DNA from: Nannocystis pusilla
Lineage (GTDB): Bacteria; Myxococcota_A; Polyangia; Nannocystales; Nannocystaceae
NCBI RefSeq assembly: GCF_049060185.1
Contig: NZ_JBMEQO010000002.1
Strand: one strand, 5' to 3'
Length of the DNA stretch: 64,000 nucleotides
This document shows positions 9,073-50,175 of the stretch, one piece after another (position 1 is the first letter of the stretch; every line of letters begins with the position of its first letter). The notes under the pieces were generated by a model. It was not told the DNA's origin. It did not search any database and saw only the letters and a list, made by a program, of their open reading frames with translations. A program made the translations under genes and the position numbers.

Positions 9073-9093
9073 GGGCCCGGGCGGGTCTTCGCG

Positions 9094-21643: not shown

Positions 21644-24051
21644 TTGCGCGTAGCAACCCCGTCCGCCCGACTGCACTGGGCCTCGCTCTCTCGGTCTGGC
21701 CGCTCTGACGCTCGGCCCGACCACCGTCTCCGCGTCCGCGCAGGATCCGACCACCGGCAGCCGTGGTGGCGAGCTGATCGGCGACGAGGGCGGCGGTACG
21801 CCCGGCGGCGGCCCGATCCCGTTCAACACGTGCAAGAAGACCCCGCGCGGGGCCAAGTTCACGATCACGTTGCCGAAGGAGACCGAGCTCGAGGACCTCG
21901 TCAACTGGATCATGTCGATCACGTGTCAGAAGTTCATCTGGGACCGCAAGGTGCGGTCCGGCAAGGTGACGATCCTGTCGCCCGAGCCGGTCACGGCCGA
22001 GGAGGCCTACGCGGCCTTCTACGCCGCGCTCGAGACGATGGGCCTGACGGTGGAGCCCTCGGGTCGCTACTTCAAGATCGTCGAGACCACCGACGCCAAG
22101 AACCGCACGCTGCCGACCTACGGCGACGACGCCGACGCGCCCAACAGCGACCGCTTCGTCACCAAGCTGATGCGCGTCAAGCACGGCAACAGCAAGGAGA
22201 TCAGCGACGTCCTCGGCCAGCTCAAGAGCAAGTCGGGCAGCGTCGACCTGGTCGGCAACCTCCTCATCATCACCGACAAGGGGTCGATGGTGCGGCGGCT
22301 CGAGACCTTCGCCGCCGAGCTCGATCAGCCGATGGGCAGCGAGAAGATCTTCTTCTACCAGCTGCAGTACGCCAACGCCGAGGAGGTCGCGCAGATCATC
22401 CGTGACATCTTCGGCGAGGCCAAGGCCAGCGGCGGCGGCGGCGGCGGCGGCGGAGCCACGGGCGGCCGCGCGGGTCGACGGGCCAGCGGCGGCGGGGGCG
22501 GCGGGGCTTCGGCCGAGTCTGCGATCAGCCGCGTGATCGTCGACGAGCGCAGCAGCACCCTCATCATCGTCACCACCGAGTCCGACTACATCGTCATCCG
22601 CAAGCTGATCGAGCGCCTCGACGTCAAGCTGCCCGGCGGCGGCGGCCGGATCCACGTTTACAAGCTCAAGAACGCCGACGCCACCGAGGTCGCGCAGGTC
22701 CTCTCGCAGCTGGCCACCGGCGCCAAGCAGGCCGCCCAGGCCTCGGCGCAGGGCGGGCAGAAGCCGCCCGCGGGCAACCCGGTCAGCGCCGACTTGTTCT
22801 CCGGCGACGTCAAGGTCACGCCCGACCCGGCGACGCGCTCGCTCGTCATCATCGCCTCGGCGGCCGACTACAAGAACTTGGAGCCGGTGATCGAGAAGCT
22901 CGACCGCGAGCGGCGCCAGCTCTACATCGAGATCTACATGCTCGAGGTGAGCATCAAGCACAACACCGACGCCGGCGCGGGCGGCCACTTCGGCTACCCG
23001 ATCAGCACCGAGCTCGGCGGCACCGCCGGCACCGCCATCGGCATGGTGGGCAGCGCGCCGACGCCCGCGCTCAACTCGCTGCTGCTCTCGCCCGACTCGC
23101 TGAAGAACTTCACCCTCGGCCTCATCGGCCCCCCGCTGCTCAACTCCGGCACCATCCTCGGCACCGGCCGCGACGTGCCGGCCTTCGGCGCCATCATCCA
23201 GGCGCTGCAGAGCAACAGCGACGTCAACGTCGTCAGCGAGCCGCACATGTACGCGGCCGACAATCAGGAGGCCACCATCGAGGTCGGCCGCAACGTCCCG
23301 ACCCCGGGCGCCCTGTCCTTCGGGGCAGGTGGCGGCGGCGGCACCGGCCTGGTCCCGCTGCAGTCGGTCGAGCGCCAGGACGTCACCCTGCGCATCAAGG
23401 TCAAGCCCTACATCAACGACGAGCGCAACGTGACGATGGACGTCGAGGTCGAGGACCGCGACATCACCGAGAAGGACCCGGTGCTCGGCGTCACCACCAC
23501 CAAGCGGCGCATCAAGCTCGACAAGATCGTCGGCCGCGACGGCCAGCCGGTCGTGCTCGGCGGCCTCATCCGTGACCGCGAGAGCGAGAACGTCAAGCAG
23601 GTCCCCGGCCTCGGCTCGATCCCGCTCCTCGGCTGGCTCTTCAAGAACCGGGTCAAGGAGAAGGAGAAGATCAACCTCCTCCTCGTCATGGTCCCGCACA
23701 TCATCGACAGCCCCGACGACGTGCGCCGGATCCACGAGCGGCGCGACAAGGAGCGGCTCGAGTTCATCGAGCGCGAGACCAACTTCCGCAAGCGCGAGCT
23801 CAAGAGCAACATCAACTACCGCAAGAAGTCCGGCATCTTGGCCGCGATCGACAAGGAGGCCCGGCGCATGGAGCAGGAGGAGCTGCTGCTGCGTCGCGCC
23901 GAGGAGGAGATGCGGCGCGAGATCATCACCGGCGAGCTCGGCCTCAGCCCGCGCTCCGCGGTCGACGACAACGTCGGCGGCGACGGCGGGCGGCGGCGCG
24001 CCGCCCGCGGCCACGGTGAACCCGGCGCCGGTGATCCGGCGCGAGCCCTGA
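21640..24051 (+). CDS. gspD: Type II secretion system secretin GspD. It has a frame switch near the N-terminus and another at the C-terminus.
   Basis: N0/N1-type domains are present (FTITLPKETELEDLVNWIMSITCQKFIW... and RVKHGNSKEIS...). The secretin core reads VNVVSEPHMYAADNQEATIEVGRNVP...PGLGSIPLLGWLFKN. Confidence 0.85.
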
Positions 24052-24070
24052 AGCTATCCTGTCGTCTGAG

Positions 24071-25918
24071 ATGCCCATGGACACCGCCCTCAAGACCACC
24101 GCAGAACGCAACGCCGGCCCGACCTTCGCGCCGCTCGGGGTCCGTCCGCTCGCGCGCCCGCTCGGCGAGATCTTGATCGAGATGGGCTGCGTCACCGCCG
24201 AGGCGCTCGCCGAGGGTTTGCAGGCGCAGCACCTCGAGGGCGAGAAGATCGGCGAGACGCTGGTGCGGCTCAAGCACTGCTCCGAGTGGGACCTCGCGCG
24301 CGGCCTGGCGCGGCAGTTCGGCCTGCCCGCCCGCGAGAACACCGAGATCAGTGACATCCAGGACGAGCTGGTCGAGCAGCTGCCGATCCAGTACGCGCGC
24401 GCCAACAAGGTCCTGCCGTACCGCCTCGACCGCGAGCGCGGCGTGCTCAGCGTCTACGCCGCCGACCCGCTGCGGCTGCTCGACCTCGACGACCTCGGCA
24501 CCCTCTACGACGCCGACGTCGACGTCACGCTGATGCCGGAGTCGAACGTCCTCGAGATCATCAACCGCACCTACGCGCGGCGCACCAAGGACGTCGACCT
24601 CGAGAAGAAGGAAGAGGAGTACGAGGAGGAGGACGAGGACATCCTGCACGCCTCGGCCGAGGACGCGCCGATCATCCGCTTCGTCAACAGCCTGATCTTC
24701 AACGCCTCGAAGGAGAAGGCGAGCGACATCCACATCGAGCCGGGCGACAAGGAGATCATCGTCCGCAACCGCGTCGACGGCGTGCTGCACGAGGTCAAGC
24801 GGGCGCCCAAGGCCCACCTTCCCAGCGTCATCGCCCGCGTCAAGATCATGGCCGGCCTCAACATCGCCGAGAAGCGGCTGCCGCAGGACGGCCGTATCCG
24901 CCGCAAGATCGCCGGCAAGGAGGTCGACATGCGCGTCGCCACCGTGCCCACGGCCCACGGCGAGCGCGTCACCGTCCGTCTCCTCGACAAGTCCGCCGTC
25001 GCGCTCAAGCTCGACAACATCGGCATCGCGGCCGACCACCTGCGGATGATCCGCGACGTCATCAACCGGCCGCACGGCATCTTCCTCGTCACCGGCCCGA
25101 CCGGTTCGGGCAAGACGACCACGCTGTACTCGGCGCTGACCGAGATCAACACGCCGGACCTCAACATCCTCACCGTCGAGGACCCGGTCGAGTACCAGCT
25201 GGCCGGCATCTCGCAGGTGCAGGTGCAGAGCAAGATCAACCTGACCTTCGCGGCCGGCCTGCGCTCCTTCCTGCGCCACGACCCCGACGTGATCATGGTC
25301 GGCGAGATCCGCGACGTCGAGACCGCCGAGATCGCGATCCAGGCGTCGCTCACCGGTCACTTGGTGCTCAGCACCATCCACACCAACGACGCCGCGACCG
25401 GCATCACGCGCCTGGTCGACATGGGCGTGCAGCCGTTCCTGGTCGCCTCGTCGCTGGTCGCGCTGCAGGCCCAGCGCCTGATCCGCCGCGTGTGCGTCCA
25501 CTGCTGCGAGCCGTACCGGCCGTTGGCGACCGAGCTCGAGGAGATCGGCATCATCCCCGCGGCCTTCTACGCGGGCGAGCAGGCGCTCAAGGTGCCGGTG
25601 CGCGACGAGAACGGCGAGGTCATCCCGCTGTCGGTGCCCGAGCCGCGGCGGCTGCCGCCGCGTGGTCACGTCTACCGCGCCGTCGGCTGCGACAAGTGCC
25701 AGGGCAGCGGCTACTCCGGGCGAACCGGCGTGTACGAGGTCTTGATGGTCAGCGAAGAGGTCCGCCGCCTGGCGATCCGCAACGCCGACGCCATGCAGAT
25801 CAAGCAGGCGGCGCTGGCTCAGGGCCTGCGCACGCTCCGCGACGACGGCGCGCACAAAGTCGTCTGCGGCATCAGCACCCTCGACGAGGTCCTGCGCGCG
25901 ACCTCGGTGGAGTCGTAA
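24071..25918 (+). CDS. gspE: Type II secretion ATPase GspE
   Basis: An intact 615-aa ORF. It has an N-terminal GspE-N domain, Walker A (GPTGSGKTT), Asp and His boxes, and the tetracysteine motif (CVHCC...CDKCQGSGY). Confidence 0.95.
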   Translation: MPMDTALKTTAERNAGPTFAPLGVRPLARPLGEILIEMGCVTAEALAEGLQAQHLEGEKIGETLVRLKHCSEWDLARGLARQFGLPARENTEISDIQDELVEQLPIQYARANKVLPYRLDRERGVLSVYAADPLRLLDLDDLGTLYDADVDVTLMPESNVLEIINRTYARRTKDVDLEKKEEEYEEEDEDILHASAEDAPIIRFVNSLIFNASKEKASDIHIEPGDKEIIVRNRVDGVLHEVKRAPKAHLPSVIARVKIMAGLNIAEKRLPQDGRIRRKIAGKEVDMRVATVPTAHGERVTVRLLDKSAVALKLDNIGIAADHLRMIRDVINRPHGIFLVTGPTGSGKTTTLYSALTEINTPDLNILTVEDPVEYQLAGISQVQVQSKINLTFAAGLRSFLRHDPDVIMVGEIRDVETAEIAIQASLTGHLVLSTIHTNDAATGITRLVDMGVQPFLVASSLVALQAQRLIRRVCVHCCEPYRPLATELEEIGIIPAAFYAGEQALKVPVRDENGEVIPLSVPEPRRLPPRGHVYRAVGCDKCQGSGYSGRTGVYEVLMVSEEVRRLAIRNADAMQIKQAALAQGLRTLRDDGAHKVVCGISTLDEVLRATSVES

Positions 25919-35630: not shown

Positions 35631-37039
35631 ATGACGAAACTGAAGAGACCAGGCCGACCCAGATTCTGGTGGTCGATGACGAGTCAAGCGCACGCTCTGC
35701 ACTCAGCGAGCTGCTGCGCGAGGAAGGTTATGAAGTCCAGTCCGCCGCCGACGGATACAAGGCGCTCGGACGCATCGACCAGTGGGAGCCGGATGTCGTC
35801 ATCACCGACGTCAAGATGCCCGGCCTCAACGGCCTCGAGCTCATATCCAAACTTCGTGAACTCTACCCTGACGTCGCGGTCGTTGTGATGACTGCCTTCG
35901 GCTCGGTCGAGGGCGCCGTCGAGGCGCTCCACCTCGGCGCCGACGATTACCTCAGCAAGCCCGTCGATCTGCCGCAGCTGCTCATCGTGCTGCAGCGGGT
36001 CCTGCGACACGCGCGCTGCAACGCGAGGCCCGACACCTCCGCTCGGCGCTCGAGGCCAGCGCGCCGACCAGCGCGCCGGCATCATCGGCCAGTCGAAGGT
36101 GTTCCGCGACCTCCTCGGCCTCGCGCGCCAGGTCGCCGACTCGCCGGTGTCGGTGCTCGTCACCGGCGAACGCGGCACCGGCAAGCAACATCTGGCGCGC
36201 CTGATCCACCAGTGGAGCGGCCGCCGCGGCCCGTTCGTCAGCCTGCAATGCAGCGGCTTCACCGACGAGGCGTGCGCCCGCGAGCTGTTCGGGGTGCGCG
36301 ACGGCGAGGCGGTGCTGCGCGAGGGCCGGCTCGTCGAGGCCGACGGCGGCACGCTTTTCTGGCCGACGTCGAAGAGCTGCCGGCGGGCGTGCAGGCGGCG
36401 CTGCTGCGGTTCCTGCAGGACCGGGCGTTCTGCCGCGTCGGCGACAGCGAGCCGCTGCACGCCGATGTCCGCGTGATCGCGGCGACCAGTCAGGACCTCG
36501 GCGCGGCCAGGGCAGCAAGCTGCGCGAGGACCTGTACTACCGCCTCAACGTGGTCAGCCTGCGCATGCCGTCGCTGCGCGAGCGCCGGGACGACATCCCG
36601 CTGCTGGCGATGCACTTCCTGCGGCAGTTCGCCGCCCAGGCGCACCGACCGATGGTCGGCTTCAGCGAGCGAGCGCTCGGGGTGCTGCTCGGGTGCGACT
36701 GGCCGGGCAACATCCGTCAGCTCGAGAACAGCGTCGAGCGGGCGGTGGTGCTCGCGCGCGGGGCGGAGATCGAGCCGCGCGACCTGCCGCGCGAGCTGAT
36801 GTCGAAGATGCGCGGCGACGACTCGGCGCCCGTGATCCGGGCGCGTCGCTGCGGAGATCGAGCGCTACGCGATCCTGCGGACGCTCGAGCACGTCGGCGG
36901 CAGCACGAGCAAGGCCGCGAAAATCCTCGGGATCTCGCCGCGTAAGATTCAGTACCGCCTCAACGAATACCGCGTCGCTCCGCAGACGGGGATGCCTCCC
37001 GTGCCACCCGAACCGCACGCGCACCGCGGCGCGCTGAGT
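35631..37039 (+). CDS. Second sigma54-dependent activator (NtrC-family: receiver, AAA+ and HTH domains). It is heavily frameshifted, with at least 4 frame switches.
   Basis: The receiver domain reads ILVVDDESSARSALSELLREEGYEVQSAADGYKAL...VVITDVKMPGLNGLEL. The AAA+ domain has GERGTGKQ, RELFG and ADVRVIAATSQDL. The HTH is AKILGISPRKIQYRLNEY. Confidence 0.75.
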
Positions 37040-37204
37040 AGGGCGCAGAACATCGAACCGCGGCGCGTGACCACGGTTCACCGAGCTCACTGGCTGTCCC
37101 TGAGGACATGTCGCATTTCTCCAGCGCCGCCGCGTCCGCGCGCGTGGGGCGCGCGTCCGGTGACGTCGCGGCAGCGTGTTACGCTCGCGCCTTCGGAGGG
37201 TGCG

Positions 37205-39600
37205 ATGAAGGAGATCGAGATTCGGATCGGGCGTGGCACCGCGGCCACGCGTTTCGCCGCCGTCCTGGTCAAGTCGGGCAGCACGGCCACCCGCAGCTTC
37301 GAGCGCGCGCGCAGCGGGCCGGGCGTGCAGATCCACCTCACCGGCGAGCGCGACTACCACGTCGCCCTCGTCGCCGAGCCCTCGGCGGCCGACAAGGCGC
37401 TGCTGCGGTCGTCGGTCGGGCACAAGATCCTGCTCGACTTCCCCGGCCGCCGCGCCGTCCGCCAGCGCCTCGCATGTCTCTCGGGACAGGGCCTTCAAGA
37501 CAGGCCGGAGCCGCAGGCGGCGGCGCTCGACCTGACCGCCGGCATCCACGGCGCGGCCCCGCTGTTCCTTCTGCCGTCCGGCGAGCTGGCGGGTGACGCA
37601 GCAGGACCTGCCCCGAAGGACATGTCGGCGCTGCCGGTGTTCGTCGCCGCGGCGCGCTGGATCTCCGCGCGGCGGACGTCGAGCTTCGAATGCCTGTTCC
37701 CGCCGAGCGCGTTCTTCCCCGACGAGCCGCTGCGGACCGAGCGGCTGACGCCGGCACAGGCGGGGCGCTGCTGCAGCAGGTCGAGGCGGTGCTGACCGCG
37801 GCGGCGCCCGCGGGCCCGCACGGGGCGGTCGACGACGCGGTGCAGCTGCGCTCGGCGGCGCTGACCGTGCTGTCGCACGTGGTCGCCACGGCGCTCAAGG
37901 ACCCCGAGTTCCGCGCCGCCGCCGACGCGGCTGCCGGGCGCATCTTCCGGCTGGTCGACGAGGAGGCCGGGCCCGGCGGGCGCAGCGAGCTGCGGGCGCA
38001 CGCCATCTCGCTGCTGTCGCTGCGCGGCCCGGCGCTGCGACCCGAGCAGCAGGGGCGCGCGCAGTCGCTGCTGCGCTCGCTGTCGCGGCAGGCCCCGCCG
38101 TACGCGGCGCTGAACGGGCCGTGGCGGTTCGCCCTGGCCTCGGCCTCCGAGTTCTTCCCCGGCGAGGTCGAGCTGCTGCAGACCAAGTACGGCTTCACCA
38201 AGATCGCCGCGCCCGAGGTACGCCGAAGCCGCCGAACCAGTGGGGCGAGGGCTACGTGGTGCTGCAGGCGCCGTTCGTCGGCAAGGGCGGGCGCGAGTTC
38301 TTGCTGTTCGCCCGCTCGGCCTCGCCGCGCGACGAGAACTTCGAGATGTCGCAGGAGTTCTTCACCGGCCTGCTCGTCAGCCGCCACGCCAACCTCGGCG
38401 CCTACGACATGCGCGCCTCGGCGATCCAGACCCAGCAGGTCGGCTACAAGCTGATGATGAACTGCCAGTGCGCCGGGCTGACCACGCGCTTCGCCATCGC
38501 CCGCATGTTCCCCGACGCCGACATCTTCTCGAGCTGGGACTCGACCTACTTCCGCACCGGCGAGGGCGACAAGGTGGTGGCCTCGGAGGGCGTCGACTGC
38601 TTCGTGGCGATCCTGCGCGGCCTCGCCGAGGAGGAGGACTTCGCGGCGATCGATCAGCGGATCCGCAAGGCCCAGTGGCACCACCGCCAGAGCCGCACGC
38701 CCGACTTCGTGCAGTTCATCGGCCCGGCCCACCCGCTGGTGGTGGCGCGCTACCAGGACATCAACCGCGACGGCAAAGCCGACTACTACGACGGCTTCCT
38801 CGACTTCCGCCTGGTCGAGATCGCCGAGAGCCTCAAGGACTCGGCGGTGCCGCGCGACCCCGGCGCGTCGCCGTCGCAGATCAGCGGCGAGGCGGCGCGC
38901 GGGCTCGGCTGGGCCGCCGGCAGCCTCAACCGGGTCACGCAGTACTCTGAACTTTGGGACAGCTTGCCGGGCCAGGCCGAGATCCTCTACGCGTTCCGGG
39001 CCGGCGGCTTCTTCAGCGGCGCCGAGCCGCCGCGCGACGTGCCGGCCGGCAAGGGCCCGCGCGGGAGCTCGGCCGCTTGCCCGCGGTGGTCCGCTACGTC
39101 CGCGACCCGGCCGGCGACGCGCTGACCGCCGACGTGCTGTTCCACAGCCACCTCAGTCACAGCGCGCAGGAGCTCAAGCGCCTGCTGGTCGCCGCGGAGG
39201 CGTGGTGGCGGGCGATCGACCTCGGCTACCTCGCCGACGCGCCGCCGCTCGACACGCCGCTCGGCCAGCGCGCCGGACTGCTGCTGCTGCTCGCCGGGCT
39301 GCTCGAGTTCCCGGCCGACCAGAACTTCGTCGACGGCCTGTGGGAGATGGCGCTCGACATGCTGCAGCTGCCGCGGCTGTCTCGCTCGCTGATCCGCCGC
39401 TGCAACAGCGACGAGGACCACAATAACGGCAACTATTACGGGTCGGTGCGAGGCATCCGCGAGCTCGTCGGCACGGCCGAAGCCCCGGCGGGGCGCTCAA
39501 GCAGGCGAACCCGGAGGCCTACGAGGATCTGGCCGCCGCCGACCCGGCGATCGGCCGCGCCCGCCCGCTCGGCGAGGTCGCGCAGGCGGCAGGAGTGTGA
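37205..39600 (+). CDS. Large hypothetical protein (~800 aa). It is frameshifted.
   Basis: Long non-R-rich translations are recovered in consecutive frames (MKEIEIRIGRGTAATRF..., ...KLMMNCQCAGLTTRFAIARMFPDADIFSSWDSTYFRTGEGDK..., ...LLVAAEAWWRAIDLGYLADAPPLD...). No family could be assigned. Confidence 0.45.
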
Positions 39601-39779
39601 ACCGGTCGGTTCGGGCGCGGGCAACCCCGCTGCGGCGACGGCTCGGCGGCGTGCACGTGCGCCGCGCTTTCGGGCTCGCGCGTGGCCATGCTCGCGAGCG
39701 GCCGCTCGCGGGCACACGTCGTGTCCGCGCGGGTATCGAACCTGCGCTTCAGGACATGTCCTGAGGCGCAGGCCGCGGC

Positions 39780-40802
39780 TCACTCCGAGCTGCTGTTCGC
39801 AGAGACCTGCTCTTCGGGCAATGTCCCGGCGGCCAGGTGCTCGAGCCAGGCGGCGAAGCGCGGGCCGACGAGCCCGTGGCCGAGGTGGTAACGCAGCTCG
39901 GCCTCGACCGCGCCGCGCCACGCCTCGACCTCGCCCGAGCCGGCCAGCAGCTCGCCGACCGTGACGTCGCCGAGGCCGGCGACCGCCTCGGTGAGCACCG
40001 CCTCGACCTCGGCTGGCAGGCGGTCCCAGGCGGCCACTGCGACCAGCGCAGCCTGGACGTCGGCCGCGACCACGGCCGGGTCGAGCTTGACGAGCTCGGC
40101 GTGGACGGCAGACTCCGGCAGATCGAGCAGCGAGGCGAGCACGTCGGCGCGGAAGGCCGCGCCCTCGCCGGCGTGCTTGGGGTCGCTGACGCGATCGACG
40201 ATCATGTCGATCACGCGGCTGACGGCCCCATCGACGAAGCCACGCACGCGATCCTCGACCGAGGCGTCGAGTCCGACCACGGAGGCCATGCCCTTGGCGA
40301 CGCCGAACAGCTTCGAGGTGACGCCGGCGCCCGGGATCTTGCTGGTGTCCGGCAAGATCGAGCCGACCTTCTTGGCGAAGTCGAGCAGGGTGGTGTGGAG
40401 GATCGTGCGCGACAGGTCGCGCACCGTCGCCTGATCGACGACGGCTCGCACGAGCGCGCGGTTCGGCGTGTAGGGCCTGCGGACCACGGTGCGCAGCAGC
40501 GGCAACAGTTCGCCGGGCAGTCGCGCGCGCAACGTGCCTTGCCGCGGCCGGATCCGTGCGAGCGCGTCGCGGAGGCGCTGCTCGAGCCACGCCTTGTGGC
40601 CGGGCGCGGCGGCGACGGCCTGCAGGCCGGTGACGATCAGCGGGGTCAGCCTTACTGGATCGATGAAGCGGCGGGCCGGCGCGGCGAGGACCTCGTCGAC
40701 CAGCAGCGCTGCCAGCGCGGCGAGGTAGCGCGGCTCGTCGCGCAGTCGCGCGAGGAGGGCAGGGACGTGGGGCACGCCGGCCCTATACCAAGCTTCTCGC
40801 AC
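39780..40802 (-). CDS. Hypothetical protein (340 aa)
   Basis: An intact ORF with balanced, helical-looking composition. The GGACATGTCC palindrome at 39752-39761 lies immediately 3' of it. Confidence 0.5.
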   Translation of the reverse strand: MREAWYRAGVPHVPALLARLRDEPRYLAALAALLVDEVLAAPARRFIDPVRLTPLIVTGLQAVAAAPGHKAWLEQRLRDALARIRPRQGTLRARLPGELLPLLRTVVRRPYTPNRALVRAVVDQATVRDLSRTILHTTLLDFAKKVGSILPDTSKIPGAGVTSKLFGVAKGMASVVGLDASVEDRVRGFVDGAVSRVIDMIVDRVSDPKHAGEGAAFRADVLASLLDLPESAVHAELVKLDPAVVAADVQAALVAVAAWDRLPAEVEAVLTEAVAGLGDVTVGELLAGSGEVEAWRGAVEAELRYHLGHGLVGPRFAAWLEHLAAGTLPEEQVSANSSSE

Positions 40803-40884
40803 GGGGATACGCTGGTCCTCACGACGCGCTGCGCCGAGCTCTCGCCCGAGACCCGGCCCTCACCACGCGCGTTGTCCCGCCGCC

Positions 40885-41723
40885 ATGCACAGTCGCAACG
40901 TCGAGATCAAGAGCCCCTGCCACGAGTCGTGGGACGCCATGCACGGCGATGCGGAGCGCCGCTTTTGCGATGTCTGCGCCAAACACGTGCACAACCTCTC
41001 GGCGATGACGCGACAGGCGGCCACCGATCTCCTGCAGGCGCACAAGGGCGAGCACCTGTGCGTCCGCTACTCGAACCAGGAAGACGGCCAGATCGCGTTC
41101 CGCGACACCGTCCCACTGTCTCGCCTCCGCCCGGTGCGGACCGCCTTCGCGGCGATGCTTTGGCCGCCTGCGCCCCGCACGGCGACGGGCCGCCGATCCA
41201 GGACATCGGCGACATCGCCATCGAGGCGATGGCCCGCGACGCCAAGCCCTCGCCCGAGGGCGGTTGCGAGGTCCAGACGGGGCCCTTCACGACCATGCAC
41301 TTCCCCGCGGGCCACGAGGTCTGCAAGAACGTGGTCGACCTCGGGGCCCAGATCCGTCCGCCCCAGCCGCCGCCGATCCCGACGGTGCCCGAGGTGACGG
41401 TGCCGACGATGGGTGCCGCGCCGATCGCCGCCGACCCGCCGCCGCCGACCGAGGAGCTGATGGGCAAGGTGGCGCCGGTCGAGCACGCGAAGATGGGCGA
41501 GGCGATGCCGGAGGTGAAGGAGCCGTGCGATCCGCAGCCCGGCTTCGCCCCGCCGCCGCCGCAGATGGGCCAGGCGCCGGTGAAGGTGGTCGAGCCGCCC
41601 AAATCGGAGCCGCTGATGGGCGACATCGCCGTCGTCGAGCCGCCGCCGCCGCCCGAGCCGGTGCGGATGGGCCGGATGGCCCCGGCCAAGACCGGCACGG
41701 CGAAGGTCGCAGGCGACCTCTGA
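40885..41723 (+). CDS. Hypothetical protein with an N-terminal Cys/His zinc-finger-like domain and a Pro-rich C-terminal half. It has one frame switch.
   Basis: The N-terminus reads IKSPCHESWDAMHGDAERRFCDVCAKHVHNLS. The C-terminal half has proline-rich PPPP repeats. Confidence 0.45.
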
Positions 41724-41920
41724 GCGCGAGCTCGGGTCGAACTGCTGAGCGCCGGAAGTTGCCATCGAGCGAGACGCCCTCGATCCACGTGAACGCCTGA
41801 GCGGCGTCGGTAGGCGGCTCGTCGTCAAAGCCTTCGTCCTTGTGGGCGGCCGTCTTCGAGGACGAGGGGCGCCGGTCTCGCTCGATGGGAGAGGCGTCGC
41901 CGCGGCGTCGGGCATGGTCG

Positions 41921-42070
41921 AAGGGACATGTCCTGGCGGTCATGCCTGACGCGTCCTGCGAGCGCGGCTGGAGACCCGGCCGAGGAGCTCACGGACATGA
42001 CCGAACAGACATGTCCAAATCGCCATGCTGCTTCGGGCATGTCTTCGAGGACATGCCCGAAGCGACAGGC
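41921..42070. repeat. Two adjacent tandem arrays of palindrome units between convergent genes
   Basis: The first run is GGGACA|TGTCCTGGCGGTCA|TGCCTGACGCGTCC. The second is GGACA|TGACCGAACAGACA|TGTCCAAATCGCCA|TGCTGCTTCGGGCA|TGTCTTCGAGGACA|TGCCCGAAGCGACA. Confidence 0.75.
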
Positions 42071-42072
42071 TC

Positions 42073-45000
42073 TCAGCTGCCGGCGGTGAAGTCCTCGCGG
42101 TTGCTGTCCCACCAGGCTTGCCAGGCGCGCAGGGCCAGCTCGCGGCTGCGGCGGTCGCCCTCGGCCGGGAACGGGATCCGCTGGCCGGTGATCCGCGCCA
42201 GCTCGTCGGCGGCCCAGCGGCGCACGGCCTCGTCGCGGTGGCGCAGGCCGTCGATGACCCACTCGATGCGCGGCTCCTGGCCGTGCTCGGCGTACCAGGC
42301 CCGCCAGCGCTGGGCGCGGTAGCCGTGGTGCTTGGCGGTGATCGAGCACAGGGCCTCGAGTGCGGCCTCGCGGACGTGCTTGTCGCGGACCGCCAGCAGG
42401 TCGATGAGGCGCGGCACTGCGAGGGTGTCGCGCAGCGTGCCGGCGGCCTCGACGGCGAGCAGCTGACGGTCGCGGTCCGAGCTCTCGAGCTCGCCGCGGA
42501 TCTCCGCGGCCACCGCCGCGAAGTCGGGCACGCGGCTGTAGGACTCGAGCACCCGGGTGGCGATCAGCCGCACGTCGGGGTCGGAGTCGAACGCCAGCTC
42601 GCCGAGTGGCCGCAGGCACTTCGGGTCGCGCAGCTCCTGGAACAGGAACGCGGCGTAGAAGCGGATCTGCGGCCGTGCGCTGGCGAACAGGGCGAGCACG
42701 TGCGGGCTGACCGCGTGGCCGAGCTCGACGCAGGCGCGCAGCAGCGGGCCGTGAGCGCTCGGCGGCGGGAAGTTGGTCGCGTTGGCGAGGTCGATGGGCC
42801 CGGGGAAGCGGGCGGCCAGGCGGGCCAGGCCGCGCTCGTCGAGCGCGCGCAGCCGCGACACGCTGGTCCACTCGGCCGGGTTCTGCAAAAAGTCCTCGAT
42901 CACCGCGTCGATCTCGCGGTCGTCGAGCGCCGCGCCAGAGGCGACCTCGGCGGCCGCGGCCGGCTCCTCGGTCGACGGCTCGTCGGCCGCGCGGCGCTCG
43001 TCGACCGGCGGGGCCGCGGCGGACCCGCTCGCCTCGTCGGCGCCGGCTGGCGCGCTCGAGTCGACCTGCGCTTCGGGACCGGTCTTGTGGGACATGTCCT
43101 CGGGAGCATGTTCCGAAGGGACGATCCCTCTCGCGGTCGACTGGGCCGCTGCCTCGTCGGCCTCGGCCTCGCGCACCAGCCGGGGCATGGTCAGGGCGCT
43201 GGACGAGGAGTCGGGGCGCGGGTCGTGCTTGCCGCGGCGCCGGCCGCTGCGCGGGCCGATCAGAGTGGTCGGCATCGACAGCGTGGGGCCGCCCTCGAGC
43301 TCGTCGGGGTCGCTGCGACGGGCCATCGGGTGCGGCGTGGCGGTGAGGCCGCCCGAGCGCCGCAGCGTCTTCGGGATCACCAGCACCGGCTCGTCCTCGT
43401 CCGGCTCGTTCGCGCGGCGACGGCGGCCCGCGCCGGGCGTGCCGGGCGGGGCGACCAGGTTGGGGATCAGGGTCTCGGGCGGGACCGGGGAGTCGACCCG
43501 CGGCAGGTCGAGGACGGTCTTGGCGTCGGGCGCGGCGCGGGTCTCGACCAGCAGCGGCTCGTGGGTCGGAGGCGGCGAGAGGTCGAGGATGGTCGGGGTG
43601 TCGGAGGCGGCGCGCGGCCACTCGTCGAACTCGTCGCGCGTGGATGTGGATGACCGCGTGGTCTCCTCGAGCACCACCCGCGGCGCGCCCGGCAGCGTCG
43701 CCGCCGGATCGTGGTCGACGCGGGCCGCGGCGGCGGTCGCGGCCGAGCGCAGCGCCGCGGCCACGGGCAGCGGGTCCTCGATGCCCGACGGTTCGGCGGT
43801 GGCGATCCAGCCCGGCATCTCCGGCTGCGGGCTCGCCGGCGGCGCCTCGGGGCTGTCCGATCGCGCATGTCCGAAGGTATTGGGCCGATCGGACAGGTCG
43901 ATCGTCACCGCCGGCAGCGGCGGCTTGGTGAACATCGCGGCGAAGCGGGCCACGAGCGGGCTGTCCTGGCCGTTCTCGGGGCCGAGCGGCACGGGGACCG
44001 GGGCGAGGCCGAGACCGGGGCCGTCGCGGCGCGGCGGCGGGCTGTCGGGCTCGTCGGGGTCGTCGGTGAGGTCCTCGTACTCCGGCTCGTCGGACGGGGG
44101 CGGCGGCTCGTCCGCGAGCGTCTGGGCCCGCACGAGCGCGGAGCTCTCGGCGCGGACCGGCAGCGGCGTCACGGTCGCCGGGTCGTCGCGGCGGATCGGG
44201 TTCTTCAGGGTGATGACGGCGCGTCCGCGGTTGCCGCGGCTGCGCAGCCGGCTGGCGAGGCTGTTGCTGTCCCCGAAGCCAGGTTCACTCGCCGCGCCGC
44301 TCGCGGTCGGCGGCGACTCGGGCTCGTCGGGTTCGGCCGAGCTCTCGGCGGCCGGCGCCTCGGGCTCGCTCTCGGAGCTGTCCGCAGAGACAGGTGGTGT
44401 CGTGGCCGGCGCGTCGGCCTCGTCGATGGTGACGATCGGGGTCGCCGGCCGGATCGACGGCCGCGTGCGGTCGGCCGGGCCGGCCCCGGGCGTGCCGCCG
44501 GGCACCACCCAGCCGAGCAGCCGCAGCAGCGCCTCGAGGCTCTGGCGGGCCGTGTCGCACAGCTCGCGCAGGACGGTCCGCTCGCGCGGATCGAAGGCGA
44601 CGCCGGAGCGGTCGAGGTAGAGCATCAGCACGGTGCGGCCGCCGGCGAGCACGGGCTCGAAGATGCAGGGGATCCCCAGCGGCTGGCCGACGGCGAACGA
44701 CAGGCTCGGCTCGATCAGGAGGTGCAGCGGTCCCTGGCCCGACACTGCGCGATCGAGCAGGCCGCCCTCGGGCAGCGGGATGACGAGGCCCTCGGACATC
44801 CGCAGCGCGCTGCCGGGCGCGGCCAGGACGCGCAGACCCTCGCGCTTGACCCCGAACAGGGCCACGCGGGGCGCGATCAGGCTGGAGGCCCGCACCAAAG
44901 CCTCGGTGATCCGGTCGCGCTCGCGCGCGGTGGCCAGAGTGGCGCGAGCGGCGTCGAGGCGCTGCGCCAGAGTCATGACCATCGGCTGCGGCAGGGCCGG

Positions 45001-47402
45001 CGGCTTGCGCGTCGACGACTCGACCCGATCCTCGTCGGACACGGCCTCGGGGGCGCCCGGCGCGGCCTCCGGAGAGCTGGCCGAAGGGACAGGCGGGCTC
45101 GGCGCGGGCTCGGCGGGGCTGACCGGAGGGACAGGTGTGCCCGGCGCGGGCTCGACGGGGCTGGCCGAAGGGACAGGCGGGCTCGGCGCGGGCTCGGCGA
45201 GGCTGACCGGAGGGACAGGTGTGCCCGGCGCGGTCGTGGAGCGAGCGACGCCGTTGCTGGGGCCGTGCGCGGACGCGGGCTTGTCGGCGGCGGGGGCGGG
45301 GGCGGGGGCGGGCGCCACGCCGACGGGGATGCCGACGAGGGTGCGCCTGTCCCAATTGCCAGACGAGGTGTCCGAATAGATGGGCACCCCGAGGGCCGGA
45401 GTCACCGGTCGCGGGGTGGTCGCCGGCGGCAGGATGATGAGCGGCGTGTCAGGGGCGATGGCCATCGCCGCCAGCGAGGCGTTCTGGTCCTCGAAGCCGC
45501 CCGGGTCGATGAGCGGGGCGTCCGGGGCGACGGGGACGGGCGAGGGCCGCGTCGACGGCCGTTTGGCGGGGGCAGCGGAATCGGGCTCGGGCGCCCGGGA
45601 GTCGTAGGCAGCCGTCTGGCGGCTCGCCGCGGCGGCAGGCGTGGGGGCGGTTTCGGTCCGGCGTCCCGTGGCGGCGTGGCCCGGGGTATCGAGCTGAGGT
45701 GACCTGGTCTCGGAGACAGGTGTTGCCTCCGGCGCAGGCGCGCGGCCGGAGGATGGGGCCGAGGCGTTCGCGGCGGAGCTGTCCGCGGGGACAGGTGCGG
45801 ACGGGGCAGTGACGCTCGGTGCTGCGGCGCGGCTGTCCTCAGGGACAGATGCGGCAGCAGGGGCCGACGCCGGCGCCGGCGTCGCGGTGCGGGTCGCGGC
45901 GGCCCGGTCCGCGGCGAGTTCGTCGGAGGCGCGAGGCGCGTTGGCGCGAGCGTCCGAGTCGGTCGCCGGCGAGCCGGCGAGAGCGGGGACGAACCCGCGG
46001 CGAGCGCGGGACCGTTCGCCGGGCGGGCCCGGTCCGCGTCGATGGCCGCGTCGCGGCTGTCCTTGAGTGCAGGTGCGAGCGACTCGCTCGGCCTGTCCCC
46101 GGGGACATGCGCCGTCGCGGCGGCGTCGTCGGGCGTGCCCGACCGCGGCGAGCCGGCCTCCGACGGCGAGGCGCCGGACGGCGAACCCGTCGCGCGCGCC
46201 GCGGTGTTCGGCCCGGACATCGCCGCCGGGCGCGGGCCGGCCATCTGCCTGTCCGATGGGACAGGTACGTCGGCCTGCAGCGCGTCGGCCAGCGACGGTC
46301 GCGCGCCCGCGGTCGCCTCGTCCATCGTGACAGGGGCGGTCTGCGTGTCTTCTGCGGCGTCGGCCTTCGGGGTGGCGGCAGGCCTGGCCTCGTCCACCTT
46401 CGCGTCGATGGCGGACCTGTCCGCCGGGACAGGCGCGTCCGCATGACCGGCGGCGACCTGGCCGCTCGCGGATTTGTCGGCGCGCGACGAACCGAAGGCA
46501 GGACCTCCGGCCTCGACCTCGACCCCGTGACTGGCGGCGGCCGTGTCGGGGCGACGGGCCGGGGCGCCTGCCCCTGGCTCGCGTCGGGCTGGGCCGCCGG
46601 GCCCTCGCCAGCGCTCGGCGCGTCAGCGTTGCGAGCGTCGACCGGCGTGTTCGCGCCGGACGGCTCCGATCCGGCGTCGGCCTGCGACCTGTCCGCAGGG
46701 ACAGCCGCATCGGCGCCGCGGGCATCGGCCGGCTGCCTGTCCGCGGGGACAGGCGCCCCCTCGCGCGCCTCGGCTGTCGGCCTGTCCGGGACAGCTGCCT
46801 CGGCGCGGGCTTCCGTCGGCTGCCTGTCTGATGAGACAGGTGCGTCGGCCGACCGCCTGTCCGCAGGGACAGCCGCCTCGCTCGGCCGCGGCTCGGCGGC
46901 GCCCGGCACCAGGCTGATCGTGATCGAGGCGGTGCGCAGCGCCTCGAGGTAGTCGAGCAGGATCAGCGCGTAGCGCGGGGCGAGGATCGAGCCGGTGCGC
47001 TCGGCGGCGATCTTGGCCAGGCAGCACTCGGGCGCGACGACCGGGTAGAAGCCGCGGACCATGCGGTAGAGCTGGCCGAGCTTGGCGTCGGGCAGGTCGG
47101 GGTGGACGGCGACGATCAGCCGGCCGTCCTCCTGCGCGAGCGGCATGGCCCAGCCGATGTCGACCAGGTCTCTCGGGACATGTTCCCAGGGACGGGTCGG
47201 CCCGCGCTCGAGCAGCCGCACCGGCGCGCCGGGAGGCCGCAGGCGCTCTGCAGCAGGGCGTCGAGCTGCAGCGGGGTCATCAGCCCGAGCTCGAGGATCG
47301 CGGTGTCGAGGCTGCCGCCGGCCAGCTGCTGCCGCCGGGTCGCGGCCTCGAGATCGGCGCGCGACAGCGGGCCGTTGGCTTCGAGGTGGCGCAGGAGGAG
47401 GC
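42073..47402 (-). CDS. Giant multidomain protein (~1770 aa). Its domains, in order, are: two N-terminal GspE-N/MshEN-like domains, long Pro/Ala/Asp-rich tandem repeats, a GAF-like domain, acidic/Pro-rich linkers, and C-terminal HEAT (PBS-lyase-type) repeats. It has at least one frame switch near 46800-47200.
   Basis: The N-terminus is VSLLLRHLEANGPLSRADLEAATRRQQLAGGSLDTAILELGLMTPLQLDALLQ. It is followed by MRLLERGPTRPWEHVPRDLVDIGWAMPLAQEDGRLIVAVHPDLPDAKLGQLYRMV. The middle has a GAF-like block MVMTLAQRLDAARATLATARERDRITEALV... The C-terminus has HEAT repeats ...DPDVRLIATRVLESY...VRDKHVREAALEAL...DEAVRRWAADELARI. The GTG start overlaps the stop of the upstream RDD gene. Confidence 0.55.
46089..46875. 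repeat. Coding tandem repeat of 33-48 bp units, each beginning with a TGTCC-N4-GGACA palindrome
   Basis: The units are CCTGTCCGCAGGGACAGCCGC..., CCTGTCCGCGGGGACAGGCGCC..., CCTGTCCGGGACAGCTGCC..., CCTGTCTGATGAGACAGGTGCG... and CCTGTCCGCAGGGACAGCCGCC. They encode the protein repeat AVPADR(Q/S)(P/A)(T/A)(E/D)A... Confidence 0.75.
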
Positions 47403-48002
47403 TCACTGTTCCCTCACGACGTAGGTGCCTGTCAGGTAGTCGTGGAAGGCCCGCTTCTCGCGGTCGAAGGCCATCCACAGCGAGCCGAGGCCGCCGGGCA
47501 CCAGGCCGACGGCGGTGCCCGCGAAACGCACCGTCGCGCGCACCGGACCGACTTTGCCGCCGGCGCGGTGGACCACGCGGATCCCGGTGAGCTTCTGCCC
47601 GGGTGTCCTTCCGGACAGGGCGATGAAGAGCACGAAGTAGAACGCGACCATCACCAGGAGCGGCGCCAGCCACACCAGGATCTCGAGCGGGTCGACGGTC
47701 AAGAGCTGGAGCAGACCGGCCCACGAGAAGGCGCCGCGCACCGGGCTCGCGTCACCGATCACGCGCTGCAGCCCGAGGTGCAGCGGGCCGGCGGTGACGA
47801 GCAGGATCGCGGCGTCGACCACCGCGGCGGCGAGGCGACGCCAGAAGCCGGCGACGCGCACCGGCACCAGCGCTTGCCCGCACGCCGGGCACGTCGGTTG
47901 CCCGTCCTTGACGAGGCCGATGTCCAGCGCCGCGTCGCAGCTCGGACACGGTGCGGGTCGCTCCTTGCGGGACCAAAACGCCATCGGCGCGCACCATAAC
48001 AC
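47403..48002 (-). CDS. RDD-family membrane protein with an N-terminal zinc-ribbon
   Basis: The zinc ribbon is CPSCDAALD...CPACGQ. The RDD-domain signature RTPGQKLTGIRVV is present, with TM segments. Confidence 0.7.
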   Translation of the reverse strand: MLWCAPMAFWSRKERPAPCPSCDAALDIGLVKDGQPTCPACGQALVPVRVAGFWRRLAAAVVDAAILLVTAGPLHLGLQRVIGDASPVRGAFSWAGLLQLLTVDPLEILVWLAPLLVMVAFYFVLFIALSGRTPGQKLTGIRVVHRAGGKVGPVRATVRFAGTAVGLVPGGLGSLWMAFDREKRAFHDYLTGTYVVREQ

Positions 48003-48056
48003 GGCCCCGGGCCTCCCGGTCCGTCCCCGCGCGGCGCGGCGGGTCCCCGCCGGCGC

Positions 48057-48743
48057 TCAGGCGAACATCACGCGAGCGACAGCGACCAGCGCCGCCGTCT
48101 CGGTGCGCAGCGTGTAGGGCCCGAGGCCGAGCGCGCGGAAGCCCGCGGCGCGCAGCAGCGCCGCCTCCTCGGGGTAAACCCACCCTCGGGCCCCACGCAC
48201 ACACGAGCACCCGCGGTGACCGCCGGCGCGTCGCTCGATGTCGCGCGCAGCTCCTCCCACGCGAACAAGCCGGGGAGGTCGGTGCGCCGGTACGTGGCCT
48301 CGCGGAGATCGACGGGTCCCGAGATCGCGGGCGCGCGGGGCCTGCCGCACTGCCGTTGCGCCGCTCGCAGCACCCGCGCGATCCGTTCGCCGCCGGGCGC
48401 CGCGCCCTGGCTGCGGGCGCAGCGGACCAGCACGACCTCGGCGACGCCGATCTCGCACAGCGCGGGGAGGACGTCCAGCACGGTGGCCGGCTCCGGCATG
48501 CCGAGCAAGACCACGACCTCGCGCGCGGGGCCGGCACCGTTCGTTGCTCGAGCAACTTCACGGTGGTGCCGCGCGCGTCGCCGCCGACGACCTCGGCCAG
48601 CCACAGCGCGCCGTGGTCGTCGATCGCCTCGATGCGCGCGCCGTCGCCGACCCGGCGGACCCGCCGGAGGTAGTGCGACTCGGCGGCGTCCAGGTCGACG
48701 CGCGCCGGGTCGGCCGGCGCGCCCACGAACACCCGCGTGCTCA
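48057..48743 (-). CDS. rsmE: 16S rRNA (uracil1498-N3)-methyltransferase RsmE. It is frameshifted and spans 3 frames.
   Basis: The sequence reads MSTRVFVGAPADPARVDLDAAESHYLRRVRRVGDGARIEAIDDHGALWLAEVV, then ...VVLLGMPEPATVLDVLPALCEIGVAEVVLVRCARSQ..., then ...GPYTLRTETAALVAVARVMFA. Confidence 0.8.
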
Positions 48744-49709
48744 TCCGGCCGCTCGCAGGACCAGCGCGCACCACTCGGCGAGGTCGCGGCGGTCGGCGAG
48801 CGCCAGCCCGGCCGCGGTGTAGGCGGCGAGCACGTCCTCGGCCTCCTCGCCGAGCACGCCGCTGAGGACGACGGCGCCGCCGGGGGCGAGGCGGCGGGCG
48901 AGGTCGCCGGCGATCGGGATCAGCACGCCGGGGCGGATGTTGGCGAGGATCAGATCGAAGCTGTCCGAAAGTTCCAAGACGGTCGCGGCCCGGATCTCGA
49001 GCCGGTCTTCTAGTTTGTTGGCGGCGGCGTTCTCGGCGGTGGTGTCGGCGGCCTCGGGATCGTTGTCGGCGGCGACCACCGCGGCCTGCGGGAACAGCCG
49101 CGCCGCCGCGAGGGCCAGGATGCCGGAGCCGCAGCCGAGGTCGAGCACGCGGTCGGGGCGCGCGCCGGCCTCGGCGAGGGCGACCAGCAGCTCCAGGCAC
49201 AGCCGCGTGGTCTCGTGCTGGCCGGTGCCGAAGGCGCGGCCGGGATCGAGGACCAGCTCGAGCTCCGGGTCGCCGGGCCGGCGATCGATCCAGCTCGGCC
49301 GCACCAGCAGCGTCGTCGTCGCGGCCGAGAACACCAGCGGCGCGTAGAACTGCTTCCACGTGTCGCGCCAGTCGTCGTCGGTGCGCACCGCCGGGGTCAG
49401 CCGCAGCGGCAGGAGCAGGTCGGCGCCGAGCCGCTCGACCTCGGCGATGAGGCCTTCGAGGCCGTCCGGGGTGGTGTAAATCGTCAACTCGGGGATCTCG
49501 CACCGACTGCCGAGCGTCGAGGTGTCCCGCGTCTCCACGCCCGCAGCGCGCGGGTCTTCGGCGATCAGCGTCGCCAGCGCCTCGAGCCGCTCCGACGCCT
49601 CGGTCAGCTCGCCGAGGTCGAGGCCCTCGCCGTCGTCGTCGGACCGGCCGCGGAGCTGGACCAAAAGCGTCGCCCACGGTTCGGCGGTCGTCTCTGCTGT
49701 CTCACGCAT
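48741..49709 (-). CDS. prmA: Ribosomal protein L11 methyltransferase PrmA
   Basis: An intact 322-aa ORF. The motifs RAFGTGQHETTRLCLELL, VLDLGCGSGILALAA and NDPEAADT are present. Confidence 0.9.
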   Translation of the reverse strand: MRETAETTAEPWATLLVQLRGRSDDDGEGLDLGELTEASERLEALATLIAEDPRAAGVETRDTSTLGSRCEIPELTIYTTPDGLEGLIAEVERLGADLLLPLRLTPAVRTDDDWRDTWKQFYAPLVFSAATTTLLVRPSWIDRRPGDPELELVLDPGRAFGTGQHETTRLCLELLVALAEAGARPDRVLDLGCGSGILALAAARLFPQAAVVAADNDPEAADTTAENAAANKLEDRLEIRAATVLELSDSFDLILANIRPGVLIPIAGDLARRLAPGGAVVLSGVLGEEAEDVLAAYTAAGLALADRRDLAEWCALVLRAAG

Positions 49710-49937
49710 GGCGCGGCAATATAGGCGAGTTCGTCACAATATCGACGGATCAATTGCATGCTCAATTACAAAAAGGCTCTAACAGGCCGTGACCTGCGGC
49801 CCGCGGGCCCGTGCGCACTTTAACTTTATTCGCCCCGTTGCCTCTGCCATACCTCAGGGCCAGATCTGGGCGGCGCCTCCGGCGACGGCGACCCATGAGG
49901 GGTCGGCCGCGACGCATCACCCCGGGCGCTGCAAGAG

Positions 49938-50175
49938 GGAGAGGCACATGGTGGCATTTACGGGAGTCAAGGTGTTCTCGGCGACCAAGGCTTGGGAGCG
50001 CGAGCAGATCAGCGACCGCATCAACGAGTGGCTCGAGGCCAATCCCGGCGTCGAGATCGTCGACAAGGTGGTCACCCAGAGCTCCGACAGCGAGTTCCAC
50101 TGCCTGACCATCACCCTGTTCTACAGCCGCCCGACCAGCCGTGGTGCCCACGCCCAGGCGTCCGTGGCGCCCTGA
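49938..50175 (+). CDS. Small hypothetical protein (~78 aa)
   Basis: An RBS (AGGGAGAGG) precedes the ATG. The composition is protein-like: MVAFTGVKVFSATKAWEREQISDRINEWLEANPGVEIVDKVVTQSSDSEFHCLTITLFY. Confidence 0.45.

Follow-up and report, generated by a model that had tools for sequence, protein, structure and literature searches.

We analysed a stretch of 64,000 nucleotides from Nannocystis pusilla (contig NZ_JBMEQO010000002.1 of assembly GCF_049060185.1; hereafter the window) that carries a long minus-strand gene at 42073..47406, which begins with a GTG codon at 47406-47404 and ends with a stop codon at 42075-42073. After three single-base repairs, its conceptual product has 1778 amino acids (aa), with an N-terminal domain of the MshEN/GSPII fold, a central domain predicted to adopt the GAF fold, and C-terminal HEAT repeats, set apart by two disordered linkers. 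An RDD gene, rsmE and prmA lie upstream on the same strand, and a type II secretion system (T2SS) cluster is found elsewhere in the window. We conclude that the product adds an unusually long member to a known, poorly understood myxobacterial family. This shifts the gene from the context of cyclic di-GMP (c-di-GMP) and type II secretion to the FrgA family, which has been genetically implicated in motility and aggregation.

Gene extent and reading frames

The sequence-only reading of this locus had described a single protein of ~1770 aa at 42073-47402. Intact orthologues indicate that the intended gene was reconstructed correctly, but a protein of this length is not encoded by the DNA as assembled, which has three frame breaks across which the frames had been spliced silently. 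The interval 42073-47402 cannot be divided evenly into codons, and an uninterrupted open reading frame (ORF) of ~1770 aa is absent from the window. G+C content is ~73-78% across the window, so that spurious long ORFs are frequent. The longest minus-strand ORF at the locus, 42073..46725, has 1550 aa, approximately the first 250 of which are in the wrong frame as judged from a plot of G+C at third codon positions (GC3), and its product has no exact match in the protein collection. The GC3 plot and a three-frame translation place the coding sequence in frame 1 from the GTG at 47406 to ~47233, in frame 3 to ~46571, in frame 2 to ~45984, and again in frame 1 to the stop codon. The peptide RRQQLAGGSLDTAILELGLMTPLQLDALLQ is in frame within the first frame-1 segment, the remainder of the same N-terminal domain is read in frame 3, and the PVPADR-type repeats of the first linker span frames 3 and 2.

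Duplication of one base at each of three sites yields a single ORF of 1778 codons that runs from 47406 to 42073. In end-to-end alignments, the repaired protein is 90% identical to P0001 (Nannocystis sp. ILAH1, 1769 aa), 87% to P0002 (N. pusilla, 1756 aa), 82% to P0003 and 65% to P0004 (N. punicea, 1840 aa); the orthologues in other Nannocystis genomes are intact, at 1756-1840 aa. The corrected frame is stop-free, with GC3 of 0.84-1.0 over most of its length and lower values in short parts of the first linker. The breaks were localized by blastn against three Nannocystis genomes. At the first (47230..47236, frame 1 to frame 3), the window has three C residues where the L007 and L001 loci have four, the L002 locus also has one extra base, and the peptide across the junction, CGLPGAPVRLL, is the same in P0001, P0002 and P0004. 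At the third (45980..45988, frame 2 to frame 1), four C residues in the window correspond to five in L007 and L001. The second (46565..46590, frame 3 to frame 2) lies at or beside a run of four G residues near 46571, where the alignment is less clean; once repaired, the peptide reads ...PDASQGAGAPARRPDTAAASHGVEVEAGG, matching ...GAPARRTDAPPAAHGLEVEAGG of P0002.

The evidence points to an assembly or sequencing artefact in which one base was lost per site, because the breaks are homopolymer base losses relative to related genomes, the same type of error is seen in neighbouring genes, and the orthologues are intact. Had the frameshifts been real, the locus would be a pseudogene in decay or a set of separate small genes, which is how the source genome annotation has it: only a 96-aa N-terminal stub, P0033 (WP_421068337.1), identical to the frame-1 ORF, is given. 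That annotation and the three breaks in the sequence as given favour such decay, but a single base is clearly missing from a C run at two of the breaks and a G run marks the third, errors of this type occur approximately every 1-1.5 kb in conserved neighbours that include prmA-rsmE and the sigma54 activator, and the corrected frame retains high GC3 for the most part and close identity to an intact orthologue. We regard genuine frameshifting as very improbable. With N. pusilla CP185339.1 proteins as tblastn queries, we counted four shifts in the gene for a 799-aa protein, two in that for a 515-aa protein, one in that for a 278-aa protein, at least three in the sigma54 activator gene and at least two in a DUF1963 gene; rsmE has two. 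Homopolymer indels throughout this assembly mask large genes, as illustrated by a 1778-aa gene annotated as a 96-aa stub, and frames must be repaired before the ORFs of the window can be read with confidence.

Relative to three other Nannocystis genomes, one-base homopolymer undercalls recur every ~1-1.5 kb across positions 37000-50000 of the window, at sites including 49923, 49774, 49753, 48530, 48174, 40806, 39486, 39065, 38218, 37765, 37148 and 37037.

Domain architecture

A comparison of 22 homologues (991-1840 aa) revealed only three conserved blocks, at residues 3-154, 804-956 and 1512-1756 in the numbering of a first composite of 1767 aa, which beyond residue ~470 is 11 lower than that of the repaired 1778-aa protein. 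The first block corresponds to the N-terminal domain (46913..47406, minus strand; residues 1-165), which was modelled by AlphaFold with a predicted local distance difference test (pLDDT) score of 92 and assigned to the MshEN/GSPII fold by Foldseek and by profile matches in the PDB. The sequence-only reading had proposed two copies of the GspE/PilB N-terminal fold here. A fold of the MshEN type is indeed present, but the model and Foldseek resolve one domain only, in which a four-helix bundle, formed by two 24-residue motifs with the spacer QLAGG, is followed by an alpha/beta T2SSE_N1 subdomain and a long helix. The best 19 Foldseek matches in the PDB are all N-terminal domains of MshE, PilB or XpsE or the GSPII domains (A/B) of PilF, over 132-143 aligned columns. 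The top match is the N-domain of Vibrio cholerae MshE (PDB 5htl; E 1.6e-6, ~139 columns), which has the same two-subdomain build and the same 24+5+24 layout, and GSPII-A of Thermus thermophilus PilF (PDB 9g1w) ranks third. In profile searches of the PDB, PilF was the best match (9e-7), followed by PilF GSPII-A (6e-5), M. xanthus PilB (9e-5) and MshE (0.013), and MshE scores 34.2 bits against a hidden Markov model (HMM) of the family N-terminus. The Pfam family PF05157 was matched neither by the N. pusilla protein at E<=1 nor by 15 Nannocystales N-termini at E<=0.1; Anaeromyxobacter orthologues match it at 3e-15.

The Pfam family DUF2949 was matched by 11 of the 15 Nannocystales four-helix bundles (best 3e-6), and in the N. 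pusilla protein by residues 4-52 (~47250-47397, minus strand). DUF2949 may itself be an unrecognised bundle of the MshEN_N type.

The central block (44497..44991, minus strand) is predicted to be a GAF-fold domain, from a model with a pLDDT of 86. A Foldseek search of the PDB returned 188 structures at E<=1e-3, headed by GAF domains; matches at a probability of 1.00 include phytochrome GAF domains, the PtsP GAF domain 3ci6, the GAF domain 3oov of a methyl-accepting chemotaxis protein and the cAMP-binding Lcd1 GAF domain 5w10, with template modelling scores of 0.65/0.70 to 3ci6 and 0.67/0.73 to 3oov. No match to Pfam GAF, GAF_2 or GAF_3 reaches its gathering score (E 7e-4 to 0.05; 14-20 bits against cut-offs of 22-29), six of 15 family members have sub-threshold matches, and a profile search of the PDB with the sequence of this block gave no meaningful match, such that the fold search alone resolved it. 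The GAF-like domain of the sequence-only reading is thus upheld as a fold, but its sequence falls below the Pfam gathering scores. New here is the suggestion, from the model, that the region listed as "UNK" in the published FrgA architecture (see below) has a GAF fold.

The C-terminal block is a PBS-type HEAT-repeat domain (42076..42891, minus strand) with matches to Pfam HEAT_2 (4e-11, 43.4 bits against a cut-off of 27.7), HEAT (27.1 bits against 23.5) and Arm, and in the PDB to PBS-HEAT proteins and to alphaRep (5e-14). This domain is 45-56% identical across Nannocystales. Here the sequence-only reading, which had ended the protein in PBS-lyase HEAT repeats, was borne out, and taken together the domain searches place HEAT_2 above its gathering score, GAF below it and T2SSE_N/MshEN without a Pfam match, with the MshEN/GSPII fold of the N-terminus recovered by structure prediction.

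Long disordered repeats had also been proposed, and these too are present. Linker 1 (44992..46912, minus strand; ~640 residues) is 24% Ala, 17% Pro and 10% Ser and net acidic, and linker 2 (42892..44496, minus strand; ~535 residues) is 16% Pro and 15% Ala, with 92 Asp and Glu against 50 Lys and Arg residues. Both are rich in Ala, Pro and Ser, contain 11-17% hydrophobic residues, and are not conserved in distant homologues. Linker 1 includes a 42-nucleotide (nt; 14-aa) tandem repeat in 4.3 copies at 45055-45233, and approximately five degenerate (A/D)(A/V)PVPADR-type motifs between 45800 and 46860. These motifs recur as VPADRQ or VPEDR in N. punicea and in more distant Nannocystaceae, and may constitute a short linear binding motif.

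The degenerate MshEN motif and the FrgA family

MshEN receptors of c-di-GMP carry two tandem motifs of the form RLGxx(L/V/I)(L/V/I)xxG(L/V/I)(L/V/I)xxxxLxxxLxxQ separated by a five-residue spacer, for which Wang et al. (2016; PMC5013675) also offer a relaxed search motif. The N. pusilla protein keeps the 24+5+24 spacing exactly, as LLLRHLEANGPLSRADLEAATRRQ - QLAGG - SLDTAILELGLMTPLQLDALLQSA, and the MshEN-like peptide quoted in the sequence-only reading is in frame; the residues that matter for c-di-GMP, however, have been replaced. In place of RLG...Q, motif I has LLL...Q and motif II has SLD...A, such that both have lost the Arg and Gly of RLG and the final Gln of motif II is Ala. Both motifs fail the strict and the relaxed definitions. 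The same is true of the family at large: among 146 N-termini, none matches the strict motif and one matches the relaxed motif. Position 1 of motif II is Ala, Ser or Thr across these N-termini, position 3 is Asp in all 146, and position 24 is Ala in most, while the Gln of motif I is retained in 138. The family-invariant surface reads GG[A/S/T]LD[T/S]xLLExG, and we propose it, from these alignments, as a new and putatively diagnostic signature of a degenerate-MshEN family.

Given that the RLG residues are lost family-wide, and given the published determinants of binding, canonical c-di-GMP binding by the N-terminal domain is unlikely. MshE no longer shows the thermal shift with c-di-GMP when mutated to G11L or G40I, and XpsE, which does not bind it, has changes that include R38G, G40L and Q61V (PMC5013675). 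GSPII-A of PilF, which is the nearest relative of known structure and has Ser at the same Arg position, showed no c-di-GMP binding by isothermal titration calorimetry or nuclear magnetic resonance (PMC12002112). This domain and the N. pusilla protein share "GGSL", with Ser replacing the motif II Arg; GSPII-A, however, is part of a pilus ATPase and has a nearly intact motif I, in contrast to the loss of RLG in both motifs and the invariant Asp seen here. The MshEN domain of MshE uses the RLG...Q residues of its two motifs to bind c-di-GMP and is attached to a secretion ATPase; the N. pusilla protein has neither these residues nor an ATPase. The N-domains of XpsE/GspE and Xanthomonas PilB (PDB 2d27 and 7lko), also among the fold matches, dock GspL/XpsL and PilZ, respectively, without binding c-di-GMP; these too are linked to ATPases, whereas a partner protein for the N. 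pusilla domain is as yet hypothetical.

A six-frame scan of the whole window matched neither the strict nor the relaxed MshEN motif anywhere, and the window is thus predicted to have no c-di-GMP-binding MshEN site. The GspE of the T2SS cluster (24035-25918, plus strand) matches Pfam MshEN at 5e-10, and its motifs, PLGEILIEMGCV... and KIGETLVRLKHC..., fail both definitions.

The sequence-only reading had not recognised the architecture as that of a described protein. It had, however, already been catalogued: "MshEN - UNK - HEAT", found in Myxococcales only, appears in Supplementary Table 4 of Wang et al., with M. xanthus FrgA (MXAN_1130) as the example (PMC5013675). The N. pusilla protein has this same order of an N-terminal MshEN domain, a middle region and C-terminal HEAT repeats, and FrgA (ABF88426) is likewise restricted to myxobacteria. 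In Table 3 of the same paper, FrgA shares a column with V. cholerae PilB/GspE and E. coli HofB (PMC5013675), which we read as probably the column of proteins in which the motif is not conserved.

The family is large. A search with an Anaeromyxobacter member gave 221 matches, and among the matches listed, all have MshEN and nearly all have HEAT_2 in precomputed Pfam annotation; with the family profile, at least 150 representatives at 50% identity exceed 400 bits. In minimal forms, of 330-360 aa, an MshEN-like domain is fused almost directly to HEAT repeats, with neither GAF domain nor linkers, and these define MshEN-like plus HEAT as the family core. Two such forms from uncultured Myxococcales (L051, 6240-7394; L052, 9977-11053) are still downstream of prmA and the RDD gene.

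That the family includes FrgA is well supported. The N-terminal 70 aa of FrgA, taken from the supplement of PMC5013675, contain the signature GGQVDSVLLEQG with the same five-residue spacer as the family; like the N. pusilla protein, FrgA has the form GGx[L/V]D[S/T]xLLExG and no RLG. This fragment is 51% identical to P0229 and 47% identical to P0261, its closest relatives in our library, both of which match the family profile as full-length members (E 2e-126 and 8e-119, respectively). An RDD gene is directly upstream of both, and P0261 has the complete prmA-rsmE-RDD order. There are also differences. The Nannocystis protein is approximately twice as long as FrgA owing to its two huge linkers, its identity to the FrgA-like P0229 is only ~32% in the N-terminal and HEAT domains, and its gene is not followed by a two-component pair like frgB/frgC. 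By the title of a study from Cho and colleagues in 2000, frgA is reportedly tied to frizzy-type aggregation. Genetic data link FrgA to frizzy-type aggregation and motility regulation (PMC10630675; bioRxiv 10.64898/2026.08.28.747804), and the pattern of frgA in transposon sequencing resembles that of frzF/E/B (bioRxiv 10.64898/2026.08.28.747804). The frgB and frgC genes encode a histidine kinase and an NtrC-type regulator (MXAN_1129 and MXAN_1128; PMC3892784).

Conserved neighbourhood and proposed role

The upstream partner of the gene (47403..48002, minus strand) encodes a 199-aa protein with a zinc ribbon and an RDD membrane domain (Pfam RDD 6.5e-24), and its TGA overlaps the GTG start of the long gene (GTGA). 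A 4-nt overlap of stop and start codons is a classic hallmark of translational coupling. This one is shared by 43 of 50 related loci, and the RDD gene is almost always coupled to its downstream neighbour by this sign. Next upstream is rsmE (~48057..48774, minus strand), encoding a 16S rRNA methyltransferase (PF04452 and PUA), between the RDD gene and prmA (48741..49709, minus strand; Pfam PrmA 4e-54). Two frameshifts, from homopolymer undercalls at 48530 and 48174, hide the ORF of rsmE in the window; in L007 the gene is intact at 8631-9350 and matches Methyltrans_RNA at 6e-31. Scanning one genome per species, we identified 51 loci, in Nannocystis, Plesiocystis, Enhygromyxa, Paraliomyxa, many metagenome-assembled genomes of Nannocystales, and a few Polyangiaceae and Anaeromyxobacteraceae. 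Nearly all of them (~50) have the order prmA, ~740 bp (corresponding to rsmE), RDD gene and long gene. This near-constant coupling to a zinc-ribbon/RDD membrane protein, with prmA-rsmE farther upstream, is new here, and provides a concrete candidate partner for M. xanthus FrgA.

We favour, with moderate confidence, the interpretation that the locus encodes one cytoplasmic FrgA-type protein of ~1778 aa with the architecture MshEN-(GAF)-HEAT, intact in intent and artefactually split, that acts as an adaptor or scaffold independently of c-di-GMP. In this model, the two very long, acidic, Ala/Pro-rich linkers would serve as flexible tethers for three small folded modules. The MshEN-fold domain, having lost the nucleotide-contacting residues, would probably be a protein-docking module by analogy with the N-domains of GspE/XpsE and Xanthomonas PilB, the HEAT repeats would bind a second partner, and the GAF domain could sense a ligand or mediate dimerisation. 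Translational coupling would allow synthesis in a fixed ratio with the zinc-ribbon/RDD membrane protein, which would probably recruit the protein to the membrane. By analogy with frgA, the output would probably be control of gliding motility, reversal and aggregation, and probably not type II secretion.

Several points weigh against this interpretation. Strict orthology with FrgA is unproven, since the comparison covers the N-terminal 70 aa of FrgA only. That fragment scores 37 bits against the family N-terminal HMM, in the same range as M. xanthus PilB (38.9) and MshE (34.2), and we therefore dropped this score as proof of orthology. A histidine kinase and NtrC pair like frgB/frgC was not found beside the gene, and the sole sigma54 activator is ~5 kb away on the other strand. 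Restoring the motif in PilF GSPII-A did not restore binding, indicating that the motif is not the sole determinant of c-di-GMP binding (PMC12002112). The proposed RDD interaction, membrane recruitment and role in motility are drawn from gene order and analogy, and the locus could, improbably, be a true pseudogene specific to this strain.

Other functions can be considered for the same architecture. The sequence-only reading had suggested a scaffold for secretion or motility machinery that responds to a nucleotide second messenger, which here would mean a protein linking c-di-GMP, through MshEN, to an adjacent T2SS or pilus. Such a role would fit the genuine MshEN fold with its retained 24+5+24 layout and mostly conserved motif I Gln, the T2SS cluster in the same window with a GspE that has its own MshEN domain, and the known docking of GspE-type N-domains on GspL. 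Responsiveness to c-di-GMP is nevertheless made unlikely by the replacement of both RLG triplets and of the motif II Gln, in a family with 0/146 strict and 1/146 relaxed matches, and by the loss of binding that accompanies equivalent substitutions in MshE, XpsE and PilF GSPII-A (PMC5013675; PMC12002112). Nor was the link to secretion supported. The gene had been placed directly after the T2SS cluster, and a plus-strand cluster is indeed present in the window, but it is 6.7 kb away and convergent, with four genes between, and GspD/E/F were not found in the flanks of orthologues outside Nannocystis. The proximity to secretion genes looks incidental, and we consider a c-di-GMP-dependent role in secretion very improbable.

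Alternatively, the protein could be a receptor for another small molecule, with a remodelled MshEN pocket, the GAF domain or both binding a ligand other than c-di-GMP to switch the scaffold. The GG-x-L-D-T/S residues and the motif I Gln are conserved beyond what upkeep of the fold would need, and GAF domains often bind cyclic nucleotides or small ligands, as do structures among the fold matches. On the other hand, ligand-binding residues were not identified, the invariant Asp at the phosphate-proximal Gly position disfavours anionic nucleotides at that site, and minimal family members manage without a GAF domain, all of which leaves a receptor role unlikely, if worth bearing in mind. A more elaborate version, a long shot for which there is no direct support here, is that FrgA-type proteins are a new class of membrane-tethered receptor, in which the GG[A/S/T]LD[T/S]...Q site, alone or with the GAF domain, would recognise some ligand that is not c-di-GMP and signal through the RDD protein and the HEAT repeats to the MglA/Frz machinery of polarity and reversal. 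We retain the c-di-GMP-independent adaptor or scaffold as the preferred interpretation.

The T2SS cluster extends from 21654 to ~35400 on the plus strand and includes GspD, GspE with MshEN, GspF, pseudopilins, GspK and a PilM/GspL-like gene. The four genes between the cluster and the long gene encode a sigma54-dependent activator whose receiver domain is truncated (35870-37036, plus strand), just beyond the T2SS genes, and hypothetical proteins of 799 aa (37205-39597, plus strand), 331 aa (39783-40775, minus strand) and 278 aa (40885-41720, plus strand), all three of which are also present in N. pusilla CP185339.1. Pfam searches gave no significant match for these three proteins, with a weak Agenet match for the 278-aa protein. 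The sigma54 activator was considered as a counterpart of FrgC and rejected, being on the side and strand of the T2SS genes. In M. xanthus, the NtrC-type gene nla4 (MXAN_2516) is numbered next to the gsp cluster (MXAN_2515-2502), and the pairing of a sigma54/NtrC-type activator with gsp genes may be conserved.

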